A DNA stretch of 64,000 nucleotides from contig DGOW01000054.1 of the NCBI GenBank assembly GCA_002390225.1, forward strand, positions 71,364 through 135,363, written 5' to 3'. The translations under genes and the position numbers were made by a program. The notes beneath the pieces are model-generated. The model saw nothing but the letters and a program-made list of their open reading frames with translations, was not told the DNA's origin and ran no database searches. Each line of letters starts with the position of its first letter. Position 1 is the first letter of the stretch. Below are positions 8,638 to 45,085 of the stretch, piece by piece. Source of the stretch: Gemmatimonadales bacterium UBA4456 (GTDB lineage Bacteria; Gemmatimonadota; Gemmatimonadetes; Longimicrobiales; Gaopeijiaceae).

Positions 8638-10074
8638 ATGACGATCCGCCGCTTTCTCGCCTCGGCTGCCATGGTCGGCGCCACACTCGGCGTCACCACG
8701 CCGGTCTCGGCCCAGACCATGCCGCCCGACGAGTACATGGAGCTCTCCCGGACGATCTTCTCCGAGCTCATTGAGATCAATACGACAGACTCCGAGCGTG
8801 GCAACAACACGCTCGCCGCTCAGGCGCTCGCACGTTACCTGCTCGATGCGGGCTTCCCGGAAGAGGACGTGCACGTGCTGGTGCCCGATGATGCACCGAC
8901 GAAGGGCAACCTGGTCGCTCGGTATCGGGGCCGGGACAGCAGCCTCAAGCCGATCCTCCTGCTCGCGCACATCGACGTGGTCGAGGCGCTACCCGAGGAC
9001 TGGTCGGACGACCTTAACCCCTTCGCCTTCACCGAGCGCGAGGGCTACTACTACGGACGCGGCGTTACGGACGACAAGGACGAGGCGGCGATTTACACGG
9101 CCAACTTCATCCGCATGCGACGTGAGGGCTTCATGCCCGAGCGAGACATTGTCGTCGCGCTCACGGCGGACGAGGAAGGAGGTCCCCGCAACGGCGTGGC
9201 GTTCCTGCTCGAAGAGCACGGGGAGCTGATCGACGCGGCCTACGCCCTCAATGAAGGTGGCGGTGGCATGGAGAGGGACGGCCGCAGGATCTCCAACAAC
9301 GTCCAGGCGGCCGAGAAGAAATTCCAGTCGTTCACCTTTCAGGCGACGAACCCGGGTGGGCACTCGTCGCTTCCGGTCCGCAAGAATGCGATCTACGACC
9401 TGTCCGCCGCGCTGCTCGCTGTGCAGAACTACGACTTCCCGATCATGCTGCATGAGGTGACAGAGGCGTTCTTCGAGGGCTCTGCCGAGATCGTAGGTGG
9501 CGAGATGGGCGAGGCCATGCGGCGCATCGTGGAGAACCCGAGCGACGCGGAGGCTGAGCGTGTTCTGGCTCAGGAGACGAGCTACAACTCGCGACTGCGC
9601 ACGACGTGCGTGGCCACGCTGCTCTCGGGAGGCCACGCAGGCAACGCGCTTCCGCAGCTGGCCGAGGCGACGGTGAACTGCCGGATCTTTCCGACTCAGG
9701 ATCCGTCGGAGGTCCTGGCCTCTCTGCAGGAGGTCGCAGCGCCCTATGACGTCGAGGTCATTCCCCAAGGTGAAGCGCGCCCGAGCCCTCCCTCACCTCT
9801 GGTCGATGAGGTGCTCGGCCCGATCGAGCGTATCACGGAGCAGATGTGGCCTGGCGTGACGGTGCTGCCCGTGATGTCGACGGGCGCGACCGACGGCCTC
9901 TACCTGCGACGTGCGGGTATTCCCGTGTACGGCGTGAGCGGCATCTTTGGTGACATGGACGACACGCGTGCCCATGGCCAGAACGAACGCATTCTCATCG
10001 AGCACTTCTATGAGGGGCAGGAGTTCTTGTACCGCCTGGTGAAGGCGCTTTCAAGTGGAGGGATCGCGCAGTAG
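8638..10074 (+). CDS. secreted M20-family metallopeptidase
   Basis: 478 aa with a signal peptide. LLLAHIDVV, GRGVTDDK and ADEEGG are metal-ligand blocks. Confidence 0.9.
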   Translation: MTIRRFLASAAMVGATLGVTTPVSAQTMPPDEYMELSRTIFSELIEINTTDSERGNNTLAAQALARYLLDAGFPEEDVHVLVPDDAPTKGNLVARYRGRDSSLKPILLLAHIDVVEALPEDWSDDLNPFAFTEREGYYYGRGVTDDKDEAAIYTANFIRMRREGFMPERDIVVALTADEEGGPRNGVAFLLEEHGELIDAAYALNEGGGGMERDGRRISNNVQAAEKKFQSFTFQATNPGGHSSLPVRKNAIYDLSAALLAVQNYDFPIMLHEVTEAFFEGSAEIVGGEMGEAMRRIVENPSDAEAERVLAQETSYNSRLRTTCVATLLSGGHAGNALPQLAEATVNCRIFPTQDPSEVLASLQEVAAPYDVEVIPQGEARPSPPSPLVDEVLGPIERITEQMWPGVTVLPVMSTGATDGLYLRRAGIPVYGVSGIFGDMDDTRAHGQNERILIEHFYEGQEFLYRLVKALSSGGIAQ

Positions 10075-10100
10075 GTGCAGCTTCGCGCTCCATAGTGCCC

Positions 10101-11807
10101 ATGTCTTTCATCCGTTTCACGATCGTTCTGGCTGCGTTGGCATGCTGTGCCGCGCCGTCGAACGTACAGGCGCAGACCGTGCTGGCGCGGGTCATCGATG
10201 ACGCCAACGGTCAGCCGATTGTGGGTGCCCAGGTCTATCTCCTGGGTGCGGACGGTGAGGTCGCGCGCAGCGCACTGACAGACGACCTGGGTCGCGCCCT
10301 GTTCGTCGGTGTGTTCGGTGACGCCTGGAGCCTTCGAGCCGAGATGATCGGCCGCGCGATGACCGAGATCGAGGCGTTCGGGGTCGATGCCGGTGAGACT
10401 GTGTCGCATGAGATCCTCATGGCATCGAGTGCGATCGTACTTGAGGGGATCGAGGTGGCGGCCTCGGGGCGCTGCGAGATGCTGAATCGCGCCGAGGGAC
10501 TCGCCGTGGCCGATGTCTGGAACGAGGCGCGCAAGGCACTCGCCGCGGCGTCGATCACGGACCAGCGTGGGCTCTACCGGTATGAGACGGTTCGGTACGA
10601 CCGTCAGATTGATGCGTTCACGAGCTCGGTGATCTCGGAAGAGAGACAGAGCCGTGACAGCTACATGCGCACGCCGTTCGAGAGTCGGCCTGCTGACGAG
10701 CTCGTCCGCGACGGCTTCGTGCAGCAGGACGCCGGGGACGATGTGTATTACGCACCGGACGCCACGGCGCTGCTCTCTGATGTCTTCCTCAATGCGCACT
10801 GCTTCAGGCTAGCCCGTGAGAGAAACGAGGAGGGGCACCTCGGTCTCGAGTTCGAGCCGACAGAGGACAGGGGCGTCCCCGATGTCCGCGGCGTGCTCTG
10901 GCTGGATGCCTCTACGGGTGAGCTGCAGTGGCTAGAGTACAGGTATACCGGCCTGCGACGGGAACTTCGCTCGCCGCGGGCGGGTGGGCGTGTCGACTTC
11001 CGCCGGCTGCCTGACGGATCATGGATCGTTCCGGAGTGGTGGATCCGTATGCCGGTCATCGCCATGCGCGAGGATTTCGAAGGCAACGTGAATGCACAGG
11101 TCGTTCGCTTCCACGAGACGGGCGGTCTGGTGACCGATGTGCGCGAGGCAGGCGGTCGGGGGCTCGGGGCGATGGCCCAGACCGGCGGGATCGAGGGCGT
11201 CGTGCGAGATAGTCTGGGTGTTCCGTTGCGGGGCGTCCGGGTCGGGGTCGTGGGATCCAACCAGGAGGTGTACTCGAACGCTGAGGGCCGTTTCGGCATT
11301 ACCAGTCTCCCGGCGGGTCGCTACCGAGTCAGCTTCACGGACGAGCGGCTCGACATCATGGGATACCGACCCGAGCCGATCGAGCAGGACGTGGTCCGAG
11401 GCGAGATGAGCTGGCTCGAGTACGTCACCCCGTCCGTCGGCGACGTGCTCTTCGAGGCGTGCCGCGATGAAGACGTGACCAACGGATTCACGCGGCTGGC
11501 TGGGTTGGTCGTCGATCGGGCAGGTGACGGCGTGCCGCTGGCCAGCGTGCGGTTGGAGTTCAGTGGGTTTCGTATGCCCACCGGCGTGATCTTCCAGGAC
11601 AACACCTGGATGGAGACGACGACTACGAACACGGGCTTCTTCAAATTCTGCGGGGTTCCACCTGACACTCGCCTGATGCTGGATGCCACGCTGGGCGACC
11701 TCGCGGCCGAGCAGCAGGTCCTGAACCTTCCCGACTACGAGACCGGTCGTGTGGTCGTGCTTCGACTGATCAGCGGAACCGACCCAGGCGGTGTCCCGTA
11801 TCAATGA
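10101..11807 (+). CDS. secreted carboxypeptidase-regulatory-like (CarboxypepD_reg) domain protein, paralog A
   Basis: Track ORF 10095..11807 (GTG); ATG at 10101. Signal peptide ends ...NVQAQ. It has Ig-like CarboxypepD_reg-type segments (VIDDANGQPIVGAQVYL; GIEGVVRDSLGVPLRGVRVGVVG). It is colinear with the next gene. Confidence 0.85.
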   Translation: MSFIRFTIVLAALACCAAPSNVQAQTVLARVIDDANGQPIVGAQVYLLGADGEVARSALTDDLGRALFVGVFGDAWSLRAEMIGRAMTEIEAFGVDAGETVSHEILMASSAIVLEGIEVAASGRCEMLNRAEGLAVADVWNEARKALAAASITDQRGLYRYETVRYDRQIDAFTSSVISEERQSRDSYMRTPFESRPADELVRDGFVQQDAGDDVYYAPDATALLSDVFLNAHCFRLARERNEEGHLGLEFEPTEDRGVPDVRGVLWLDASTGELQWLEYRYTGLRRELRSPRAGGRVDFRRLPDGSWIVPEWWIRMPVIAMREDFEGNVNAQVVRFHETGGLVTDVREAGGRGLGAMAQTGGIEGVVRDSLGVPLRGVRVGVVGSNQEVYSNAEGRFGITSLPAGRYRVSFTDERLDIMGYRPEPIEQDVVRGEMSWLEYVTPSVGDVLFEACRDEDVTNGFTRLAGLVVDRAGDGVPLASVRLEFSGFRMPTGVIFQDNTWMETTTTNTGFFKFCGVPPDTRLMLDATLGDLAAEQQVLNLPDYETGRVVVLRLISGTDPGGVPYQ

Positions 11808-11837
11808 GGTCCTCTCGCACGGATTGATGCCCGACAC

Positions 11838-13544
11838 ATGATGCACTTCTCCCGCCCGCTGCTCGCCCTTGTGGCTGCCCTGCTCGTGGCCCCTGCCGCA
11901 GCGTCTGCGCAGACAATCCTCGTCCGCGTCGTGGGTGACGACGGTGGCCGCCCCATGGTCGGGGCTGTCACCTCCCTGCTGAACACGTCGGGCCAGATGG
12001 TGACGAACACCCTGACGGACGAGAGGGGGCGTGCGCTCTTCATCGACGTTCCGCTCGGGACGTTCTCGGTTCAGGCCGAGATGATCGGGAAGGCCACCGC
12101 CCGGACGGAGGCGTTCGAGATTACGGCGGGTTCGACGGTGTCGCGCGATCTCATGCTGGAGTCGAGCGCGATCATTCTCGAGGGCATCGAGGTCTCGGCC
12201 GACGCGGGTCGGTGCCAGGTCCGGCCCGGTGGGGAGGGCCTGCTGGTCGCGGACGTATGGGCGGAGGCACGCAAGGCGCTCGCCGCCGCGTCGATTACCG
12301 ACCAGGGAGGAGCCTATCGCTACGAGTTGATGAGCTATGATCGCCAGCTCGATCGGCAGAGCGGCACGGTTCTGTCCGAGGAGCAGACGCGGCGGGAGGG
12401 ATACATGACGACGCCGTTCGAAAGCCGGCCTGCCGAGGACCTGATCGAGAATGGCTTCGTCCAGCCCGAGGGGCGGGACTTCCTGTATTACGCGCCCGAC
12501 GCGTCGGTGCTGCTCTCCGACCCGTTCTTGGACTCGCACTGCTTCAAGATGGTCGCTGCTCGCAACGATGACGGGCTGGTCGGTCTCGGCTTCGAGCCCA
12601 CAGGTGACGAGAAGAGCGTGCCGGATATTCAGGGCACCATGTGGCTCGACCCGCAGACGGCCGAGCTCCAGTGGCTCGAGTACCAGTACACCTACCTCGA
12701 TGAGGAGATGACCTCGGAGATGGTCGGTGGCCGCGTCGATTTCGAGAAGATGCCGAACGGAACGTGGATCGTCCCCGAGTGGTGGATCCGCATGCCGATC
12801 ATGGAGAACCAGACCGGGTTCGATCGTCGTGTGCGCAGCTATATCGCGCAGTATCACCAGACCGGTGGCCTGGTGCTCGAGGTGCGGGAAGCCGGTGGGC
12901 GGAGCCTCGGCCAGCGCGCCGAAACGGGGGGGATCGAGGGCGTGGTGCGTGACAGCCTCGGGGTCCCCCAGCGTGGCGTCCGAGTCGGCGTGGTGGGTTC
13001 GAATCAGGAGGTTTATTCGAACGCCGAGGGTGCGTTCAGCATCACGGGCCTGACCGACGGGCGTTATCAGGTGCGGTTCGTGGATACACAGCTCGAGGCC
13101 ATGGGGTACATCCCCAATCCGGTCGAGCGCGATGTGATTCGGGGTGAGATGGCGCTCCTCGAGTTCTTTACGCCCTCGATCGGTGACGTGCTGATCGAGG
13201 CCTGTGAAGGTGTGGAGCGGGAGCGGGGCAGTGTCCTGTTGGCCGGAGCGGTCGTCGACGCGCGAGATCGTCCTGTCGTCAATGCTGAGGTCCAGGTGGT
13301 CTGGGAGGGTTTCTCGACCGCGGGCGGTGGAAACGTCGAACGTGTTCAGGATCTCACCGGGAGCACGTCGGGCTTTTCCACCACATCGAACCAGTCCGGC
13401 TTCTTCAAGTTCTGCGGTGTACCCGCGGGAGCCCGCCTGCAGATCCAGGCGTCGGTCGACAACAACCGCAGCGACGAGGTGGAGTTCATGATTCCGTCTA
13501 CGCAGACCGGTCGGATGACGGTGCTCACGATCGAGGGTCGCTAA
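11838..13544 (+). CDS. secreted carboxypeptidase-regulatory-like domain protein, paralog B
   Basis: 568 aa, alignable end to end with 10101..11807. Shared blocks include SAI[VI]LEGIEV, VADVWxEARKALAAASITDQ, WIVPEWWIRMP and GGIEGVVRDSLGVP. Confidence 0.85.
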   Translation: MMHFSRPLLALVAALLVAPAAASAQTILVRVVGDDGGRPMVGAVTSLLNTSGQMVTNTLTDERGRALFIDVPLGTFSVQAEMIGKATARTEAFEITAGSTVSRDLMLESSAIILEGIEVSADAGRCQVRPGGEGLLVADVWAEARKALAAASITDQGGAYRYELMSYDRQLDRQSGTVLSEEQTRREGYMTTPFESRPAEDLIENGFVQPEGRDFLYYAPDASVLLSDPFLDSHCFKMVAARNDDGLVGLGFEPTGDEKSVPDIQGTMWLDPQTAELQWLEYQYTYLDEEMTSEMVGGRVDFEKMPNGTWIVPEWWIRMPIMENQTGFDRRVRSYIAQYHQTGGLVLEVREAGGRSLGQRAETGGIEGVVRDSLGVPQRGVRVGVVGSNQEVYSNAEGAFSITGLTDGRYQVRFVDTQLEAMGYIPNPVERDVIRGEMALLEFFTPSIGDVLIEACEGVERERGSVLLAGAVVDARDRPVVNAEVQVVWEGFSTAGGGNVERVQDLTGSTSGFSTTSNQSGFFKFCGVPAGARLQIQASVDNNRSDEVEFMIPSTQTGRMTVLTIEGR

Positions 13545-28049: not shown

Positions 28050-29615
28050 TCAGGCCGTGGTGGTGGTCAACTGCTGCTGGGCGACGATGCCGAGGCAGAT
28101 GGCCCAGAACACGAGGGGTACGGCCCACAGGCCTTCACCCGCAGTCATGAGTACGGCAGTGCTCGCCAGACAGTACGCCACCACAAGGAGCTCCACAAAG
28201 AAGCTCCAGTGGAGCGGAGCCAGGTAGGCGTCGGGGGTGGCACGTTCCGGCTCGATCTCGCTGGGCATGTGGTGGGCCTTCGGCGTCCGGACGAACTCTC
28301 CGCCGGACGAGAGAAAGCCCTGGACCTGGCCGATGGTGTTGTTCACCATCAGGCCGATCCCTACACAAACGCTCGATACGATTTGCACGACCGAGCGCAA
28401 CGACAGGCGTTCGTCCCGCTCGAGCACCGTGAGCGCGAAGCTGACCGGCGCCACGATGACCACGAGTGCCATGATCCCCTGGATCACCCAGAAGGTGGTG
28501 CGGTCCATGTACAGGACCGCCAGGGGCCAGAGCAGCAGGTTGGTCATCAGGATCGGGTGGATGCCGTACCCGGCAAGGAGGAACGCCTCGTCGATGCGGT
28601 CTTCGAGCACACTGCCGGCGGACAGGATCCGCGCGGTCAGCAGGCGGAAGCACTGTGCGTTGCCCTTGGCCCAGCGCTGCTGCTGCTGCTTGAAGGCGCG
28701 CATGCCCTCGGGTAGCTCGTTCACGACCGGGACGTCGCGCAGATACCGCCCCCTCCACCCGTTCAGGGCGCACCGATAACTCAGGTCCAGATCCTCGGTG
28801 AGTGTCTCGGCCGACCAGCCTCCGACCTCGTCGATCGCCGTGCGGCGCCAGATGCCCCCGGAGCCGTTGAACGTCGCGACGTTGCCGATGAATGCGCGGG
28901 TCGGCTTCTGTACGAAGAAGTGTCGGTCCAGGAGGAGGGCCAGAGACGACGCGAGAAAGCCCTGGATCGGCTCGCTCCACGCCCATCGGGTCTGCACGAA
29001 CGCCACGTCATCCTGGTCGAATCCATGCCGGTCGACGAGCACCGTGCGCAGGAAGGACGGGTCGGGCACGAAGTCAGCATCGAAGACGGCCACGAATTCT
29101 GCGTCTGAGTGCTCGAGCCCCTCGGAAAGAGCGCCCGCCTTGTAGCCGGATCGATGGGTACGGCGAATGTGCTCCACGCGAATGCCATCGGCGCGCATAT
29201 CGTCGACGACGCGGGCCACGATGTTCACGGTTTCGTCGTCCGAGTCGTCTAGGACCTGCACGTCGAACCTGTCCTTCGGATAGTCCTGAGCAGAGGCCGC
29301 TCGGATGATCTGTTCGGCCGCGCGCCGCTCGTTGTAGAGGGGCAGCTGGATGGTGACGAGTGGCAGCGGACCGGTGTCGCTGTCGTCGTCGTGATCCGCA
29401 TCAGGCCGCGGGCTGCTGGTGACCATCGTCCGGATCTCTCGGCGATTGCGCAGGAAGCGCCACAGCATCCTGAACTCGACCGCTGCGAACGCCGCACCCG
29501 TAAGCGCAGCGATCCCGTACACAACGGTGATCATGGATGACATCAGGGCGGGGACGTGAGGTCGTCGATTCTGAGGAGGAACAGAGGTAGACGGTATGAA
29601 GATTCCCGGGATCAC
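28050..29615 (-). CDS. membrane-embedded processive glycosyltransferase family 2 (cellulose-synthase/CslA-like)
   Basis: 521 aa with an N-terminal TM segment. Contains LPLYNE, VLDDSDDET, FDADFVP and the QQQRWAKG (Q-x-x-R-W) motif, plus about 4 C-terminal TM helices. An alternative start is Met at 29543. Confidence 0.88.
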   Translation of the reverse strand: MIPGIFIPSTSVPPQNRRPHVPALMSSMITVVYGIAALTGAAFAAVEFRMLWRFLRNRREIRTMVTSSPRPDADHDDDSDTGPLPLVTIQLPLYNERRAAEQIIRAASAQDYPKDRFDVQVLDDSDDETVNIVARVVDDMRADGIRVEHIRRTHRSGYKAGALSEGLEHSDAEFVAVFDADFVPDPSFLRTVLVDRHGFDQDDVAFVQTRWAWSEPIQGFLASSLALLLDRHFFVQKPTRAFIGNVATFNGSGGIWRRTAIDEVGGWSAETLTEDLDLSYRCALNGWRGRYLRDVPVVNELPEGMRAFKQQQQRWAKGNAQCFRLLTARILSAGSVLEDRIDEAFLLAGYGIHPILMTNLLLWPLAVLYMDRTTFWVIQGIMALVVIVAPVSFALTVLERDERLSLRSVVQIVSSVCVGIGLMVNNTIGQVQGFLSSGGEFVRTPKAHHMPSEIEPERATPDAYLAPLHWSFFVELLVVAYCLASTAVLMTAGEGLWAVPLVFWAICLGIVAQQQLTTTTA

Positions 29616-29648
29616 GGCACCCCTGCCTCGGGGCCGGGATCTCTGGAT

Positions 29649-29963
29649 CTAGCGGCGGAACCGGAACAGGAAGATTGCGCCGACGAGGGCGAAGCCGACG
29701 GCTGCCTTCATGATCGCTTCCCGGTCCCATTCCTCGGTTCGCAGGGTGCGGGAGCGCCGTTCCTGATCGACGTGGATGCTGCAGTACGACGATTCGGTTT
29801 GGGTGTCACGCCTGCAGCGATCTCCCTTCTTCGTTTTTCCTTCGCACTGTGCCACGATCAGCCCCCTTCGCTGCAGTGCCGACGCCAGTTGTCGGTTCGT
29901 ACTGGTACTACGGTTGGACCATCGATTCGGTTCACCGATGATGCACGGATGTTCGGCGTTCAT
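29649..29963 (-). CDS. hypothetical small C-terminally anchored protein with a Cys/His zinc-finger-like motif
   Basis: 104 aa. Has CEGKTKKGDRCRRDTQTESSYCSIH (C-x9-C-x12-C-x2-H) and a C-terminal hydrophobic helix AAVGFALVGAIFLF. The start is only 29 nt from the divergent gene, so it is uncertain. Confidence 0.45.
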   Translation of the reverse strand: MNAEHPCIIGEPNRWSNRSTSTNRQLASALQRRGLIVAQCEGKTKKGDRCRRDTQTESSYCSIHVDQERRSRTLRTEEWDREAIMKAAVGFALVGAIFLFRFRR

Positions 29964-29992
29964 GCTTCCGGGCGCATGACACGCCGGGTAGC

Positions 29993-30589
29993 TTGCCGGC
30001 CATGCCCTACATCGAACAGGTACCGGTCAGCGAGGCGAAAGGCCTCCTGAAGAAGCTCCTCGACGAGGCCATGGAGCGCGCGGGTCGCGTCTGGCACATC
30101 ATCCATATCATGAGTCAGAACCCACGGGCCATGGACGCCTCGATGGCGTTCTACGGCGCTATCATGTGCGGGCCGTCGCCGCTGACTCGCTGGCAGCGAG
30201 AGATGCTGGCGACCGTCACCTCGAAGGCGAACGACTGCTTTTACTGAACGCAGTCGCATGCGCATGACCTCCGGGCTGAGGTCGAGGATTTGTTCGAGAC
30301 GGACGAAGAGCGAGACGTCTTCGTGCACGAGATCGCGCGCGACTGGCGCGGCGCTCAGCTTTCGGAGGCTAACCAGGCGCTCTGCAGACATGCTGAAGTG
30401 CTCACGCATCATCAGCATTCGGCCGGCCAGCACTCGGTCGACGAGCTGCGTGCACACGGCTTTGACGACCGAGCCATCCACGATGCCACTCAGGTGATCG
30501 CGTACTTCAACTACATCACCCGCGTGGCGGACGGACTCGGAGTGGAGCCAGAGGATTTCATCGAGCCTTGGGGTCTGGAGCCGCTCTGA
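29993..30589 (+). CDS. AhpD-like / carboxymuconolactone decarboxylase-family peroxidase-related protein, predicted selenoprotein (TGA 30245-30247 read as Sec)
   Basis: Track ORFs 29993..30247 and 30290..30589 share one frame. The joined product reads ...SKANDCFY-U-TQSHAHDL..., matching the family N-x-C-x-Y-C-x-x-x-H motif. The C-terminal half (QVIAYFNYITRVADGLG) is still family-like. The start may be Met at 30002 (MPYIEQV). Confidence 0.7.
30266..30283 (+). promoter_or_regulatory. SECIS-like hairpin downstream of the in-frame UGA
   Basis: GACCTC-cgggct-GAGGTC is a perfect 6-bp stem with a G-containing 6-nt loop. It starts 19 nt after the TGA. Confidence 0.5.
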
Positions 30590-30664
30590 TGGGGGCTGGC
30601 GCGGCGGTGTATATTGCGGCGTTCTGTTGACGTGAGGAGCGCTCGGCGCTCCACGCCTCCGACC

Positions 30665-31651
30665 ATGATGCCCATGGATACCAAGCGCCCGACCGTTGCT
30701 GCCGCCGAGGAAATTCTCGGCAGCTATTTTCCGGTACTCGACCACGGCTTCGTTTCACTTGTCGACTACATGGGGTCGGACGACGACGTCGAGCGCGCGG
30801 CTCGGGTCAGTTACGGCTTCGGGACACGGAAGGTCTCCCAGACACGTGGGTTGGTGCGTTACCTCCGGCGGCATCGTCATACGACGCCGTCCGAGATGGT
30901 GGAGTTCAAGTTGCATTGCGCGATGCCGATGTTCGTGGCCCGCCAGTGGATCCGGCACAGAACGGCCTCGGTCAACGAGTTGTCGGCGCGCTACAGCCTC
31001 ATGCCGCTTCTGTTCTATACGCCCGAGCAGGAGCAGTTCGAGCTCCAGAGCCGGTCGAACAAGCAGGGTCGGGAGGGCGGTGCCTCGCAGGAGGTGTACC
31101 GAGAGGCCGTCGAGCGATGGGAGCGACTTCGGGCCGACGCCGGTGAAGCGTATTCGTGGATGCTTGAGGAAGACGTCGCGCGTGAGCTGGCTCGCATCGA
31201 CCTCCCCGTTTCGACTTATACGCAGTGGTACTGGAAGATCGACCTCCACAACCTGCTGCACTTCCTGTCTCTGCGGGTCGATACCAGAGCGCAGTGGGAG
31301 ATCCAGCAGTTCGCGCGGGTGATCGCAGGCATGGTAAAACGCGTCGCTCCGCTCTCGTACGAGGCCTGGGTCGACTACGAGCTGGGATCCGAACCACTGA
31401 CCCGCGTCGAGCGAGATCTGCTCTCCCGGGTGGTCGAGGGGGACGACAAAGGGATTCGGGCGCGTGACGGCGCGAGTCTCAGCATGGACGAGATGAAAGA
31501 GGCCGGTCTTTCGCCCCGTGAGGCTCTCGAAATGATGGAAAAACTGAGTGCCCCATCGATTCCCGATTTCGAGCTGGACCTGTCGACCATGGTCGACGCG
31601 GACACGATGGCGTCGAAGATGTACGAAGCCGTGCCGAGCAGCTTCGAGTAG
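30665..31651 (+). CDS. thyX: FAD-dependent thymidylate synthase
   Basis: Internal Met of ORF 30614..31651. Has the ThyX signature RHRTASVNELSARY (RHRxxSxxxxSxRY). Confidence 0.95.
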   Translation: MMPMDTKRPTVAAAEEILGSYFPVLDHGFVSLVDYMGSDDDVERAARVSYGFGTRKVSQTRGLVRYLRRHRHTTPSEMVEFKLHCAMPMFVARQWIRHRTASVNELSARYSLMPLLFYTPEQEQFELQSRSNKQGREGGASQEVYREAVERWERLRADAGEAYSWMLEEDVARELARIDLPVSTYTQWYWKIDLHNLLHFLSLRVDTRAQWEIQQFARVIAGMVKRVAPLSYEAWVDYELGSEPLTRVERDLLSRVVEGDDKGIRARDGASLSMDEMKEAGLSPREALEMMEKLSAPSIPDFELDLSTMVDADTMASKMYEAVPSSFE

Positions 31652-42886: not shown

Positions 42887-43053
42887 CCAATCGCCCGGGC
42901 TCTGAATGTGGCCCGTTGCTCGCCCCCGGGGACCGATTAGACTTGAGGTCTGCCGGTCCTCACAACCCGTGTCGACCCTTTCCAATTCAGGACAGATCCC
43001 GACCCAGGGGCACCCTTCACCGGGCGCCGTAGGTGGTCGGGTTTCCGGAGCCG

Positions 43054-44061
43054 ATGGCTGACAACATCCGGGATATCACGATCATTGGTGGTGGGCCGAC
43101 TGGGCTCTTCGCCGCGTTCTACGCCGGAATGCGTGGTTCATCGTGTCGCATTATCGATTCGCTGCCTGAGCTCGGCGGACAGCTGGCTGCGCTCTATCCT
43201 GAGAAGTACATCCACGATGTGGGTGGCTTCCCAAAGGTGCTGGCGAAAGATCTTGTGCACGGGCTGGTCGAGCAGGCTCTCCAGTTCGATCCGGACGTGG
43301 TCGTGGACGAACAGGTGCGCGATCTGGAGCACACCGATGATCACTTCGTGCTTCATTGCGCGAAGGGGTCGTACGGTACGCGGTCGATCGTGATCGCGGG
43401 GGGGAAGGGCGCGTTCGAACCGATGCCCCTCAAGTGCCCGGGGTATGAGGAATTCATGCACAGCGGCGTCGAATACGCGGTGCGCGATCCCGAGGCTTTC
43501 CGCGGGCGGAAGGTTGTGGTCGTCGGGGGTGGAGACACCGCCCTCGACTTCGTGGTCATGCTCAAGGATGTCGCCGAGTCCATAACGCTGGTTCACCGTC
43601 GCGACGGCTGGCGGGCCCATGCTGCGACCGTGTCACAGGTGGAGCATGCAGCGTCTTCGGGTGAGGTCGAGCTGCGCACCTTCTACGAGGTGCGAGAGAT
43701 CCTCGGGGACGGCGTCGTCGATCGCGTGACGATCTTCGACAACCGCACCGATGAGGACGTGACCCTCGAGTGCGACACGGTACTCTCCTGTCTCGGATTC
43801 AAGCCTGACCTGGGCCCGATCAAGTCATGGGGTCTCGAGGTCGAGAAGAACCGCATTCTCGTCAACGCGCTGATGGCGACGAATGTGTCGGGAATCTTCG
43901 CTGCGGGTGACGTAGTGAACTACGAAGGGAAACTGGATCTCATCGCCACGGGTTTTGCCGAGGCCGCCGTCGCCGTGAACAATGCAGTGCACCACGTCGA
44001 CCCATCGGCCCGGGTGAACCCCGGCCATTCCACGAACATGAAAATCTTCAAGGACGAGTGA
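43054..44061 (+). CDS. thioredoxin-reductase-like ferredoxin-NADP+ reductase (YumC-type)
   Basis: Internal Met of ORF 43033..44061. Has [12 protein letters not shown] and [15 protein letters not shown] dinucleotide motifs and lacks the CxxC of TrxB. Confidence 0.85.
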
Positions 44062-44071
44062 GGAACCGAGC

Positions 44072-45085
44072 ATGATCGAACACGGCACGCCTCAACACGA
44101 AAAGGTCGTCATCATCGGGTCTGGCCCGGCGGGTTGGACCGCCGCGATCTACGCCGCCCGCGCAGAGATGAACCCGTTCGTGATCGAGGGAAGCATCAGC
44201 AGGACGATGATCCCCGGTGGTCAGCTCATGTTCACCACCGAAGTCGAGAACTACCCGGGCTTCAAGGAAGGCGTCGACGGCCAGGCCCTCATGCTGGAGA
44301 TGAAGGATCAGGCGCTCCGCTTCGACACGAGGGTTCTCACCGAAGACGTTGTGGAGATCGACAAGGACGTCCACCCCTTCCGACTCACGACAACCAGCGG
44401 CACTGTCGTGACCGCCGACGCCGTGATTCTGGCCACCGGTGCGAATGCGAACTGGCTCGGCCTTCCGAACGAGGAGCGGCTGGCTCAGAGCGGTGGCGGT
44501 GTGAGCGCATGCGCGGTCTGTGACGGGGCGCTGCCTCACTTCCGTGATCAGGTGCTGGCCGTGATCGGGGGTGGTGACACGGCGATGGAGGACGCCCTCT
44601 ACCTGACGAAGTTCGCGAAGGAGGTCGTTGTCGTGCACCGTCGTGATGAGCTGCGCGCGTCGAAGATCATGGCCGAGCGCGCCGTGGAGAACGAAAAGAT
44701 CACGTTCGCCTGGAACACCGTCGTGACCGAGGTGCTGGGCGACGATGTGATCACAGGCCTGCGGCTCAAGGACGTGAATTCCGACGAAGAGCGCGAGCTA
44801 GCTGTCGGTGGTCTCTTCGTGGCGATCGGGCACGCACCGAACACCGGATTCCTGAAGGGCGTCGTGGACCTGAAGGAGAACGGCTACGTCGAAACGCCGG
44901 TCGCATGGCGTACGGAGACGTCGGTCCCGGGCATCTTCGCCGCGGGTGACGTCATGGACGACTACTACCGTCAGGCCGTCACGGCGGCGGGGACTGGTTG
45001 CATGGCTGCGCTCGAGGCCGAACGGTGGCTGGCGCACGGTGGCGCTGAAGCGCACACCACGGAGGCTATCGCGGCGGGAGACTGA
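44072..45085 (+). CDS. trxB: thioredoxin-disulfide reductase
   Basis: 337 aa. IIGSGPAG, redox-active [21 protein letters not shown]. Confidence 0.95.

Follow-up and report, generated by a model that had tools for sequence, protein, structure and literature searches.

According to our analysis, the gene at positions 30002-30589 of the window (the whole 64-kb stretch of DNA that was analyzed, from an uncultured marine member of the Longimicrobiales) very probably encodes a single 195-residue AhpD-like protein (COG2128/TIGR01926), in which codon 82, a UGA, is read as selenocysteine (Sec). The evidence comes from the reading frame, the family assignment, the Sec/Cys column of the alignments, the conservation of the TGA among relatives, selection on the downstream half of the gene, and an RNA hairpin located just past the TGA. 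The gene is an unannotated member of a catalogued selenoprotein family and not a new kind of selenoprotein. AhpD-like CxxU selenoproteins have been catalogued since 2005, with 27 sequences from the Sargasso Sea (PMC1088965) and 299 sequences from the GOS data (PMC2398784), and the family appears as “AhpD-like protein, TIGR01926, CxxU” in a 2026 review (PMC13188914); the original prediction was therefore right in calling this a recognized family. The features considered are the following:

30002..30589, plus strand: complete coding sequence of the predicted AhpD-like selenoprotein, 195 codons including Sec82, terminal TGA at 30587-30589
30245..30247, plus strand: predicted Sec codon, TGA (U82), second position of the C79-x-x-U82 redox motif
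30200..30259, plus strand: active-site stretch, with E67 (30200-30202), C79 (30236-30238), Y81 (30242-30244), U82, and H86 (30257-30259)
30265..30284, plus strand: putative SECIS element, 7-bp stem (30265-30271/30278-30284) and 6-nt apical loop CGGGCU (30272-30277), encoding (H)DLRAEV
30002..30247, plus strand: N-terminal fragment of the public annotation, 81 aa, exact sequence on 42 contigs
30290..30589, plus strand: C-terminal fragment of the public annotation, 99 aa with a TTG start, exact sequence in the protein collection
30665..31651, plus strand: thyX (FAD-dependent thymidylate synthase), 75 nt past the AhpD-like stop, outside the feature and given for context only
28050-29648, minus strand: glycosyltransferase, the other neighbor

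On the plus strand, 30002-30589 forms a single reading frame with a sole in-frame TGA at 30245-30247. Re-reading of the sequence showed that the ORFs 29993..30247 and 30290..30589 share a frame and are separated by this TGA and 14 sense codons, and that the motif around the stop is NDCFY[TGA]TQSHAHDL, both as the original prediction had described. Its proposal of one joined protein also stands, but not the length of 198 aa: judging from the homologues, translation almost certainly starts at ATG 30002 rather than at TTG 29993, and the protein is therefore 195 aa long. All homologues open with MPYIEQ or MPWI, which fits this start; the 81-aa call likewise begins with MPYIEQ, and the version with the TTG start has no entry in the collection. 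The call at 30290..30589 is an artefact of splitting and does not represent a separate gene. As for the surroundings, the identity of thyX follows from an exact protein match (P0176) named “FAD-dependent thymidylate synthase” and from a match to Pfam Thy1. The order of the AhpD-like gene followed by thyX recurs in the related locus L024.

The joined protein matched the NCBIfam model TIGR01926 with 126.6 bits (cut-off 81.8), residues 6-185 being aligned to profile positions 5-177/178. The solved AhpD-like chains 6K40, 2OYO, and 2PRR span residues 14-186, and 2PFX and 3C1L also cross the TGA; the proposed membership in the AhpD-like fold rests on these matches to solved structures. With a TIGR01926 score above the cut-off and an end-to-end match with solved structures, the joined product is a full-length member of the AhpD-like family, as had been supposed. 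The TGA had further been placed where the CxxC motif has its second Cys, and alignment with Cys-containing homologues and solved structures confirmed this position. Cys occupies it in PDB 6K40, 2OYO, 2PRR, 2PFX, and 3C1L, where NRCVYCAVSH in the PDB homologues aligns against NDCFY[U]TQSH in the window, and also in P0021, P0057, P0062, P0064, P0069, and P0075; at the same column, the codon of L109 is TGC. E67, C79, Y81, and H86 were invariant in our alignments (A1 and A3). The relay positions E67/C79/Y81/U82/H86 are all present, with the spacing E-x11-C-x-Y-C-x3-H that is found in Pseudomonas aeruginosa PA0269, whose relay residues are Glu36/Cys48/Tyr50/Cys51/His55 (PMC3141380). By alignment, these five residues are the predicted counterparts of the AhpD proton-relay residues.

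The second element of the prediction was a 6-bp hairpin, GACCTC-cgggct-GAGGTC, at 30266-30283. It was found there, with the RNA core GACCUC/GAGGUC and an MFE of -9.3 kcal/mol, and a seventh U.G pair extends it to 30265-30284. The published model of bacterial SECIS elements describes a loop of 3-9 nt, a stem of 4-16 bp, a G at the first or second loop position (with G/U usually next), a distance of 16-37 nt from the UGA, and an MFE of <= -7.5. The hairpin agrees with this model on every count (loop of 6 nt, stem of 6-7 bp, spacing of 24 nt, MFE of -9.3). The geometry originally proposed thus fits the published model; only the position of the loop, given as about 27-30 nt from the UGA, had to be corrected to +25 to +30 past the UGA, with 24 nt between. 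Folded as a single sequence, the region was no more stable than shuffled sequences (z = -0.80), and hence the significance of the hairpin comes from comparative data only. No Rfam match to the hairpin region was obtained, either at the gathering or at the E-value threshold.

In the comparison of 98 sequences, standard pairs filled 96.6% of the pair cells, and the observed pairing values were reached by 0 of 500 shuffles. Double changes from C-G to U-A occurred at two pairs with zero unpaired cells; the composition of pair 30-43 was CG 89, UA 6, and UG 3, with none unpaired. The MFE was <= -7.5 in 88/98 sequences, the loop showed G and then G/U in 97/98, and in five relatives it was narrowed to a GGUC tetraloop. 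The synonymous sites pointed in the same direction. Leu90 is encoded by CTC in 91/92 sequences (in other Leu columns CTC accounts for only 22-49), Glu93 by GAG in 92/94, and Val94 by GTC in 77/85. The Arg91 codon is CGG in 59, CGT in 34, and CGC in just one of 94 sequences; all other Arg columns have CGC as their most frequent codon. Based on this comparative evidence, with both covariation and suppression of synonymous variation seen, the SECIS-like hairpin at 30265-30284 is identified as a predicted SECIS element.

It seems improbable that the UGA is read through without selenocysteine, by a near-cognate or suppressor tRNA that inserts Trp, Cys, Gly, or Arg, with the hairpin acting as a general stimulator of read-through. 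Such a reading would be in line with the lack of visible Sec machinery in the window and the related loci, and with the relatives that have TGG, AGA, or GGA and retain the hairpin, which indicate that proteins with other residues at this position exist. However, the position is that of the attacking Cys of the CxxC motif, at which distant homologues and solved structures show only Cys. The rule of G followed by G/U in the loop, which bars the preferred Arg codon CGC, is the specific signature of the SelB-binding bacterial SECIS model, and the family itself is already catalogued as a selenoprotein family.

Sense codons one nucleotide away from TGA occur in a few relatives with the hairpin intact: TGG (Trp) was seen on 10 contigs, AGA (Arg) in two samples, and GGA (Gly) in one. 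P0002 has a genuine TGG at the Sec column, whereas the “W” of P0001 is a code-4 artefact. Therefore, some lineages live without Sec at this site. It is a tentative and rather doubtful idea that the family represents a natural record of selenocysteine loss, in which the TGG, AGA, and GGA lineages keep a useless “fossil” SECIS hairpin in an otherwise intact gene. Should the Trp, Arg, and Gly variants be functional, the AhpD-like fold would serve some purpose that does not depend on the attacking Sec/Cys, and DLRxEV, imposed by the hairpin, would illustrate how an RNA signal can fix a motif in a protein. Still less likely is a decoding of the UGA in Longimicrobiales that dispenses with canonical SelB.

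Several searches for the Sec-decoding machinery covered the window and the related loci. ARAGORN detected no tRNA gene in the 64-kb window and a single tRNA-Arg, with no other tRNA, in the 20 related loci. No SelA, SelB, or SelD was found among the 47 window ORF translations in NCBIfam and Pfam scans, and phmmer searches with the Escherichia coli SelA, SelB, and SelD sequences, confirmed as queries against Pfam, returned nothing in the 843 kb made up of the window and the related loci. A scan of the window for coding-flanked TGA codons revealed, as selenoprotein candidates, only the AhpD-like gene along with ordinary gene junctions. The pair 10014-11807 / 11808-13544, considered as a TGA-split candidate, was rejected, as the two are tandem paralogues. 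Our results imply Sec decoding in marine Longimicrobiales (Gemmatimonadota), in some Anaerolineales, and in one genome of Acidimicrobiia; in the searched literature, Sec use in Gemmatimonadota/Longimicrobiales is not documented.

Whether close relatives carry TGA or TGC/TGT at this codon had been named as a check of the prediction, and they keep the TGA. At the column in question it was present in 20/20 genome loci (identity of 53-93%) from Gemmatimonadota, Anaerolineales, and Acidimicrobiia, and in 77/80 metagenome loci. The TGA-bearing set from the genome and metagenome scans comprises 98 distinct sequences from three phyla, and the window and two looked-up loci also have TGA. One of the homologues, L019, is carried by a complete Longimicrobiales chromosome (OZ252109.1). 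This conservation bears on the possibility of a decaying pseudogene truncated at codon 81, or of two genes forming a split protein, to which we attach very little probability. All automated gene calls give two ORFs and fragments make up 88 of the 120 best database matches, as either version of this reading would have it. Decay, however, is at odds with the identical TGA throughout the set, with the finding that 0/94 homologous genes contain a further in-frame stop or a frameshift, and with purifying selection on the C-terminal part (dN/dS of ~0.09-0.13 for close pairs) that equals that on the N-terminal part. The part after the TGA measures 100-129 codons in all homologues. A second gene would be one without a conserved start: in the 94 homologues, the earliest in-frame ATG, GTG, or TTG past the TGA lies 0 to 85 codons downstream. 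Despite this variable restart position, the residues just past the TGA are conserved, including the invariant H86, and in most sequences this catalytic residue precedes any restart. Furthermore, the solved homologues are single chains of ~190 aa that cover both parts. The early argument against a decayed pseudogene is borne out by the lack of downstream decay in the relatives and by the selection acting on the C-terminal part.

Equally slight is the probability that the hairpin simply results from the DLRxEV peptide and codon bias, or that it serves as an intrinsic terminator or attenuator. The stem arms do code for conserved residues, and a terminator scan returned 30265-30284 followed by AGGATTTGTT. 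As an intrinsic terminator, however, the hairpin was rejected, since the count of predicted terminators was no higher than in shuffles and the T-rich tail was unconserved in the homologues. As to the peptide, when its synonymous codons were resampled according to the genes' own usage, full hairpins were expected in 17% of cases (31% at maximum), against 87/94 fully paired hairpins, or 93%, observed. Moreover, the DLRxEV peptide is itself peculiar to the TGA forms, the Cys forms having DLHAEA, DLRKVT, ALLHFW, and similar sequences together with no hairpin or only a weak fold. Thus, the Cys forms L117 and L118 lack the hairpin (MFE of -0.9 and about 0), and the folds of L109 and L095 are weaker (MFE of -4.1 and -5.4).

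It is hardly credible that the TGA arose through faulty sequencing or assembly, or that it is a sense codon under code table 4 or 25, as some database translations with W or G at the column and the calling of P0001 with a TGA=Trp code might suggest. The same population is represented by six independent assemblies from different samples (1-5 differences over 588 nt), and all of them carry the TGA. Marine samples in which the contig occurs include ERZ977842 and ERZ22156890. Among the true terminators of the window, TGA is the most frequent, ending 21/34 family-supported genes, the AhpD-like gene included, and therefore indicates the standard genetic code. The code-4 call of P0001, moreover, overruns a real TGA stop into non-homologous sequence. 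The final stops of the 94 homologues were TGA in 45, TAG in 33, and TAA in 15.

We infer the following scheme for the step with SelB and Sec, for the chemistry of the protein, and for its physiological partner. The hairpin, located 18 nt past the UGA and having a loop of the form C-G-G/U-G-N-N, would act as a bacterial SECIS and be bound by SelB.GTP.Sec-tRNASec, which would deliver Sec once the UGA has entered the A site. After the insertion of Sec, translation would continue to the true stop at 30587. By homology, U82 would replace the second Cys in the CxxC motif of AhpD, the residue that is exposed and makes the attack; in Mycobacterium tuberculosis AhpD, it is the second Cys, Cys133, that cross-links to AhpC (PMC6626918). 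C79 would be the resolving partner and form a selenenylsulfide with U82, and E67, Y81, and H86, together with a water molecule, may constitute the proton relay. The substrate could be a peroxide, although re-reduction of an oxidized peroxiredoxin-type partner appears more probable. A thioredoxin reductase encoded at 44042-45085 is, together with thioredoxin, a candidate reductant.

The main value of these results concerns annotation, and no new biological question is opened by them. Split annotation of the gene had been anticipated, and in GenBank and other gene calls it indeed appears as an 81-aa “carboxymuconolactone decarboxylase family protein” plus a 99-aa “hypothetical protein”; two unrelated fragments thus stand for the gene in GenBank, IMG, and further collections. 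The cluster mates of the 81-aa fragment are named “carboxymuconolactone decarboxylase family protein” or “alkylhydroperoxidase family enzyme,” and the cluster representative of the 99-aa fragment is [quoted passage not shown] Other database relatives, among the best 120, are mistranslated with Trp. Taken together, the fragments and the Trp mistranslations indicate that automated pipelines systematically miss a widespread marine selenoprotein. The set of 98 sequences also provides an unusually clean example of a SECIS in a coding region, with covariation, a preferred Arg codon (CGC) barred from the loop, and a peptide, DLRxEV, that is due to the RNA; the set is therefore of use in training predictors of SECIS elements and selenoproteins.

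Among the known systems, gamma-carboxymuconolactone decarboxylase was rejected as an identity for the protein. The true enzymes of this type have no CxxC relay (PMC3141380), whereas a CxxC/CxxU relay is present here, and the match to the Pfam CMD family (PF02627, 30.2 bits) is limited to residues 41-92. The NCBIfam model NF041238, AhpD_rel_CFYUT (“alkylhydroperoxidase-related (seleno)protein,” the Sargasso Sea “hypothetical protein 1”), shares the identical pentapeptide C-F-Y-U-T and a homologous C-terminal domain (74.2 bits, residues 59-185 on profile positions 216-337). The score is nevertheless far below the 175-bit cut-off, and the model, of 357 positions, has an extra N-terminal part of ~215 residues that is absent from the 195-aa protein, which, as judged by these matches, is a relative of NF041238 and not a member.

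The Cys-containing AhpD-like structures (Deinococcus radiodurans DR_1765 6K40, 2OYO, 2PRR, 2PFX, and 3C1L) have the same length of ~190 aa and align over their whole extent (E of 5e-20 to 2e-13), and they, together with P. aeruginosa PA0269 (2O4D), have the relay spacing E...C-x-[YH]-C...H in common with the window protein. They differ from it in having Cys in place of UGA/Sec, genes without the SECIS hairpin, and a different peptide following the motif (AALREF, for instance, against DLRAEV). M. tuberculosis AhpD, the reductant of AhpC, has the same catalytic motif (Cys130/Cys133/His137/Glu118), its Cys133 matching U82, and the window protein scores 29.3 bits against the AhpD core domain TIGR00778 (cut-off 27.8); the topology of the M. 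tuberculosis enzyme differs, however, as its active helices are C-terminal. In contrast to the canonical AhpC/AhpD system, with its adjacent ahpC, the neighbors here are a glycosyltransferase and thyX, and no peroxiredoxin was found among the scanned window ORFs.

The hairpin resembles bacterial SECIS elements (the E. coli fdhF type and the Zhang and Gladyshev bSECIS model) in its coding-region site right after the UGA, its short stem, and its small loop. Its sequence is unrelated to the E. coli fdhF element and no bulged U is evident in it, and its binding by SelB is presumed. The closest counterpart is the catalogued AhpD-like selenoprotein family (COG2128/TIGR01926, CxxU), which is alike in its motif, in Sec replacing the second Cys, in a SECIS just downstream, and in its origin from marine metagenomes. 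No difference of substance from this family was revealed; the present copy comes from an uncultured marine member of the Longimicrobiales (Gemmatimonadota) and is annotated as two fragments.

The AhpD-like gene of the window (30002-30589, forward strand) contains an in-frame TGA at 30245-30247. As originally described, the open reading frames 29993..30247 and 30290..30589 lie in one frame, with nothing but this TGA and 14 sense codons between them. Read through, the frame translates as ...SKANDCFY*TQSHAHDLRAEV... and runs to a terminal TGA at 30587-30589. Third-position G+C is 0.83 and 0.75 in the two parts of the gene (window G+C, 63%), which is as high as in real genes of the window. The TTG start proposed at 29993, with a product of 198 aa, was not upheld: MPYIEQ/MPWI is the N-terminus in all relatives, and the public collection holds an 81-aa product from the ATG at 30002 on 42 contigs, with the TTG-start version absent. 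The true start is therefore almost certainly ATG 30002, which gives 195 residues and makes the UGA codon 82 (U82). An antisense open reading frame (29960-30745, reverse strand, 261 aa) spans the entire gene. This is a shadow ORF, a frequent occurrence where G+C content is high, and no gene caller reported it in the six related contigs.

According to our analysis, UGA82 is very probably decoded as selenocysteine (Sec) via the elongation factor SelB, as suggested by conservation of the UGA, selection on the frame downstream of it and the SelB-type loop signature of the hairpin. The main rival explanation, in which the UGA is read through with another amino acid, appears highly improbable. No selA, selB, selD or tRNA-Sec was found within the 64-kb window or, using validated Sel query sequences, in 843 kb comprising the window and the fetched loci of relatives; a literature search gave no mention of Sec use in Gemmatimonadota.

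For the family searches, codon 82 was entered as Cys. Matches were obtained to NCBIfam TIGR01926 "peroxidase-related enzyme" over residues 6-185 (126.6 bits; cut-off 81.8), to TIGR00778, the core domain of AhpD (29.3 bits; cut-off 27.8), and to Pfam CMD. Membership in NF041238 "AhpD_rel_CFYUT (seleno)protein" was rejected, although the CFYUT pentapeptide is common to both, because the score was 74 bits against a cut-off of 175 and the match was confined to the C-terminal third of the longer model. The best solved relatives are AhpD-like proteins with one chain of about 190 aa: Deinococcus radiodurans AhpD 6K40 (E 5e-20), followed by 2OYO, 2PRR, 2PFX and 3C1L. The alignment (residues 14-186) is unbroken across the TGA. 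The solved relatives have N-R-C-V-Y-C-A-V-S-H where the window protein has N-D-C-F-Y-U-T-Q-S-H, which confirms that the UGA falls in the Cys/Sec column.

A scan with one genome per species yielded 20 relatives of 53-93% identity, mostly Gemmatimonadota/Longimicrobiales MAGs, plus two Anaerolineales and one Acidimicrobiia. The question of whether relatives carry TGA or TGC/TGT was answered in favor of TGA, which occupies the same codon in 20/20 genome relatives and in 77 of the 80 metagenome loci returned; the remaining three are one without the region, one frameshifted or masked, and the locus L095 with TGC. Removal of duplicates left 98 distinct sequences around the TGA and 94 complete genes. 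The view that the gene is a pseudogene or a split gene is contradicted by these data. None of the 94 genes contains another in-frame stop, and the part 3' of the TGA has 100-129 codons. The distance from the TGA to the next in-frame ATG/GTG/TTG varies between 0 and 85 codons, and therefore no restart is conserved; the invariant His86 is usually upstream of any possible restart. The C-terminal part is no less constrained than the N-terminal part: close pairs (window versus the loci L002-L004) give dN/dS values of about 0.09-0.12 for either part, and the medians over 1,905 pairs, inflated by saturation, are 0.37 and 0.42, respectively. An error or an alternative code is likewise contradicted, since the TGA is present in 6/6 assemblies made independently from this population, with 1-5 differences across the 588 nt, and the genetic code of the window is standard, with TGA terminating 21 of the 34 window genes with a family match, the AhpD-like gene included. 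The 94 homologues terminate in TGA (45), TAG (33) and TAA (15).

The predicted hairpin GACCUC-CGGGCU-GAGGUC at 30266-30283 was recovered and, with an added U.G pair, extends over 30265-30284. The single-sequence hairpin alone is no evidence, as its stretch folds no better than shuffles (z -0.80). When the 98 sequences are aligned over 60 columns without gaps, the helix (columns 27-33 x 40-46) has standard pairs in 96.6% of cells; pair 30-43 is C-G in 89, U-A in 6 and U-G in 3, pair 31-42 is C-G in 96 and U-A in 2, and neither is ever unpaired. The percentage paired, double-change count and covariation score observed were each reached by 0/500 shuffles, shifting the partner by 1-3 columns lowered pairing to 22-46%, and RNAalifold predicted the same helix. 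Independent double changes are few, and therefore the synonymous sites are the stronger argument:

Asp89, in the hairpin: GAC in 85/92
Leu90, in the hairpin: CTC in 91/92 (other conserved Leu columns: CTC 22-49, CTG 28-45)
Arg91, in the loop: CGG 59, CGT 34, CGC 1 (every other conserved Arg column has CGC most often)
Glu93, in the hairpin: GAG in 92/94
Val94, in the hairpin: GTC in 77/85

When the same peptides were given synonymous codons drawn from the genes' own usage (2,000 trials), the full 6-bp stem paired in 17% (maximum 31%), compared with 93% observed (87/94), which contradicts the explanation of the hairpin as only codon bias. The terminator explanation is contradicted as well: predicted terminators are no more numerous than in shuffles, and homologues do not conserve the T-rich tail. 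The published model of the bacterial SECIS, the RNA signal for Sec insertion, specifies a loop of 3-9 nt, an upper stem of 4-16 bp, a UGA-loop distance of 16-37 nt, MFE <= -7.5 kcal/mol and a G in loop positions 1-2, usually followed by G or U (PMC13188914). The window hairpin lies within all these ranges: the loop has 6 nt, the stem 6-7 bp, the spacing is 24 nt and invariant in length, and MFE is -9.3 kcal/mol (median -9.6; <= -7.5 in 88/98 sequences). The loop reads C-G-G/U in 97/98 sequences, and Arg91 excludes CGC and CGA, precisely as the "G then G/U" rule demands. In genuine Cys forms the hairpin is absent or folds only weakly (MFE -0.9 in L117, about 0 in L118, -4.1 in L109, -5.4 in L095), and DLHAEA, DLRKVT, ALLHFW and similar peptides stand in place of the DLRxEV of the Sec forms, in which DLRxEV is therefore partly a consequence of the RNA element.

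Several relatives differ at the Sec position:

L021:10001-10582 (also L022, L023): TGG/Trp; protein match P0002, 10 contigs up to 199 kb
L107:5001-5582 (also L108): AGA/Arg; P0014, two samples
L106:367-963: GGA/Gly; P0007
L095:580-1134: TGC/Cys with the first motif Cys lost (ANSTRYCAIAH), a single-Cys variant; its weak hairpin is kept with two G.U pairs
L117:789-1382 (reverse strand): a second, more divergent AhpD-like gene, whose in-frame TGA likewise falls at the U of CxxU (NRCHY*TESHAEFLRRL), back to back with the Cys-containing paralogue P0064 (115-669)

The TGG, AGA and GGA codons are each one nucleotide from TGA, the rest of the gene is intact and the hairpin is fully paired (MFE -7.9 to -9.4); these variants look like recent Sec losses with a "fossil" SECIS. 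L117:789-1382 lacks the DLRxEV hairpin and would therefore require a different SECIS. Farther along the Trp-variant contig (L021:12605-14132, 2-3.5 kb downstream) are two genes that may form a redox cluster: one for a secreted thiol peroxidase-like protein of the AhpC/Redoxin family, the other a second member of the CMD family, in which the CxxC is intact (NGCDYCMAAH).

The gene under study has two neighbors in the window:

28050-29648, divergent: glycosyltransferase
30665-31651, same strand: thyX, starting 75 nt downstream

The order AhpD-like gene-thyX is common to the window and the locus L024. A canonical ahpC-ahpD operon was rejected, as no peroxiredoxin adjoins the gene. Thioredoxin reductase (13 kb away) and KatG (26 kb) are no evidence for a partner. 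The former (44042-45085, forward strand; TIGR01292, 380 bits, above cut-off) overlaps a preceding TrxR-like paralogue (43033-44061, forward strand; 181 bits, below). Elsewhere, the in-frame ORFs 10014-11807 (597 aa) and 11808-13544 (578 aa) on the forward strand, with a TGA between them, are not a read-through case: they are 54% identical, both have CarboxypepD_reg domains and an N-terminus of their own, and they represent an ordinary junction of tandem paralogues. A marine Longimicrobiales MAG (locus tag P8L45_), whose NCBI proteins include MDG2282591.1 and MDG2282752.1, matches the window.

The expectation that annotation would split the gene proved correct almost everywhere, where public calls either split or mistranslate it. 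Among the best 120 protein matches, 88 are fragments of <150 aa, including 83 C-terminal parts (42 of them beginning with the codon that follows the TGA) and three N-terminal parts ending CxY; 15 full-length calls have W at the Sec column, and P0001, translated with a TGA=Trp code, also overruns the real stop. The family is thus systematically mis-annotated, and the practical value of the finding, well supported and ordinary for specialists, lies in annotation.

E67, C79, Y81 and H86 are invariant across our alignments, and E67/C79/Y81/U82/H86 are spaced exactly like the proton-relay residues of Pseudomonas aeruginosa PA0269 (Glu36/Cys48/Tyr50/Cys51/His55), whose equivalents in Mycobacterium tuberculosis AhpD are Glu118/Cys130/His132/Cys133/His137 (PMC3141380). 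Because Cys133, the second Cys of the M. tuberculosis protein, is the exposed one that becomes cross-linked to AhpC (PMC6626918), the UGA sits at the predicted attacking residue, a typical site of Cys to Sec replacement. That AhpD-like selenoproteins were already recognized is supported by the literature: in the 2005 Sargasso Sea analysis, "AhpD-like protein (COG2128), CxxU" ranked first in abundance among the new selenoprotein families, with 27 sequences (PMC1088965), and in GOS it counted 299 (PMC2398784). It is present in a few sequenced bacteria (PMC1794560), is browsable in BSepDB (PMC13326102) and is entered in a 2026 review as "AhpD-like protein, TIGR01926, CxxU" (PMC13188914). Judged by its sequence, the window gene has every feature of this family and is a new, unannotated member of it.
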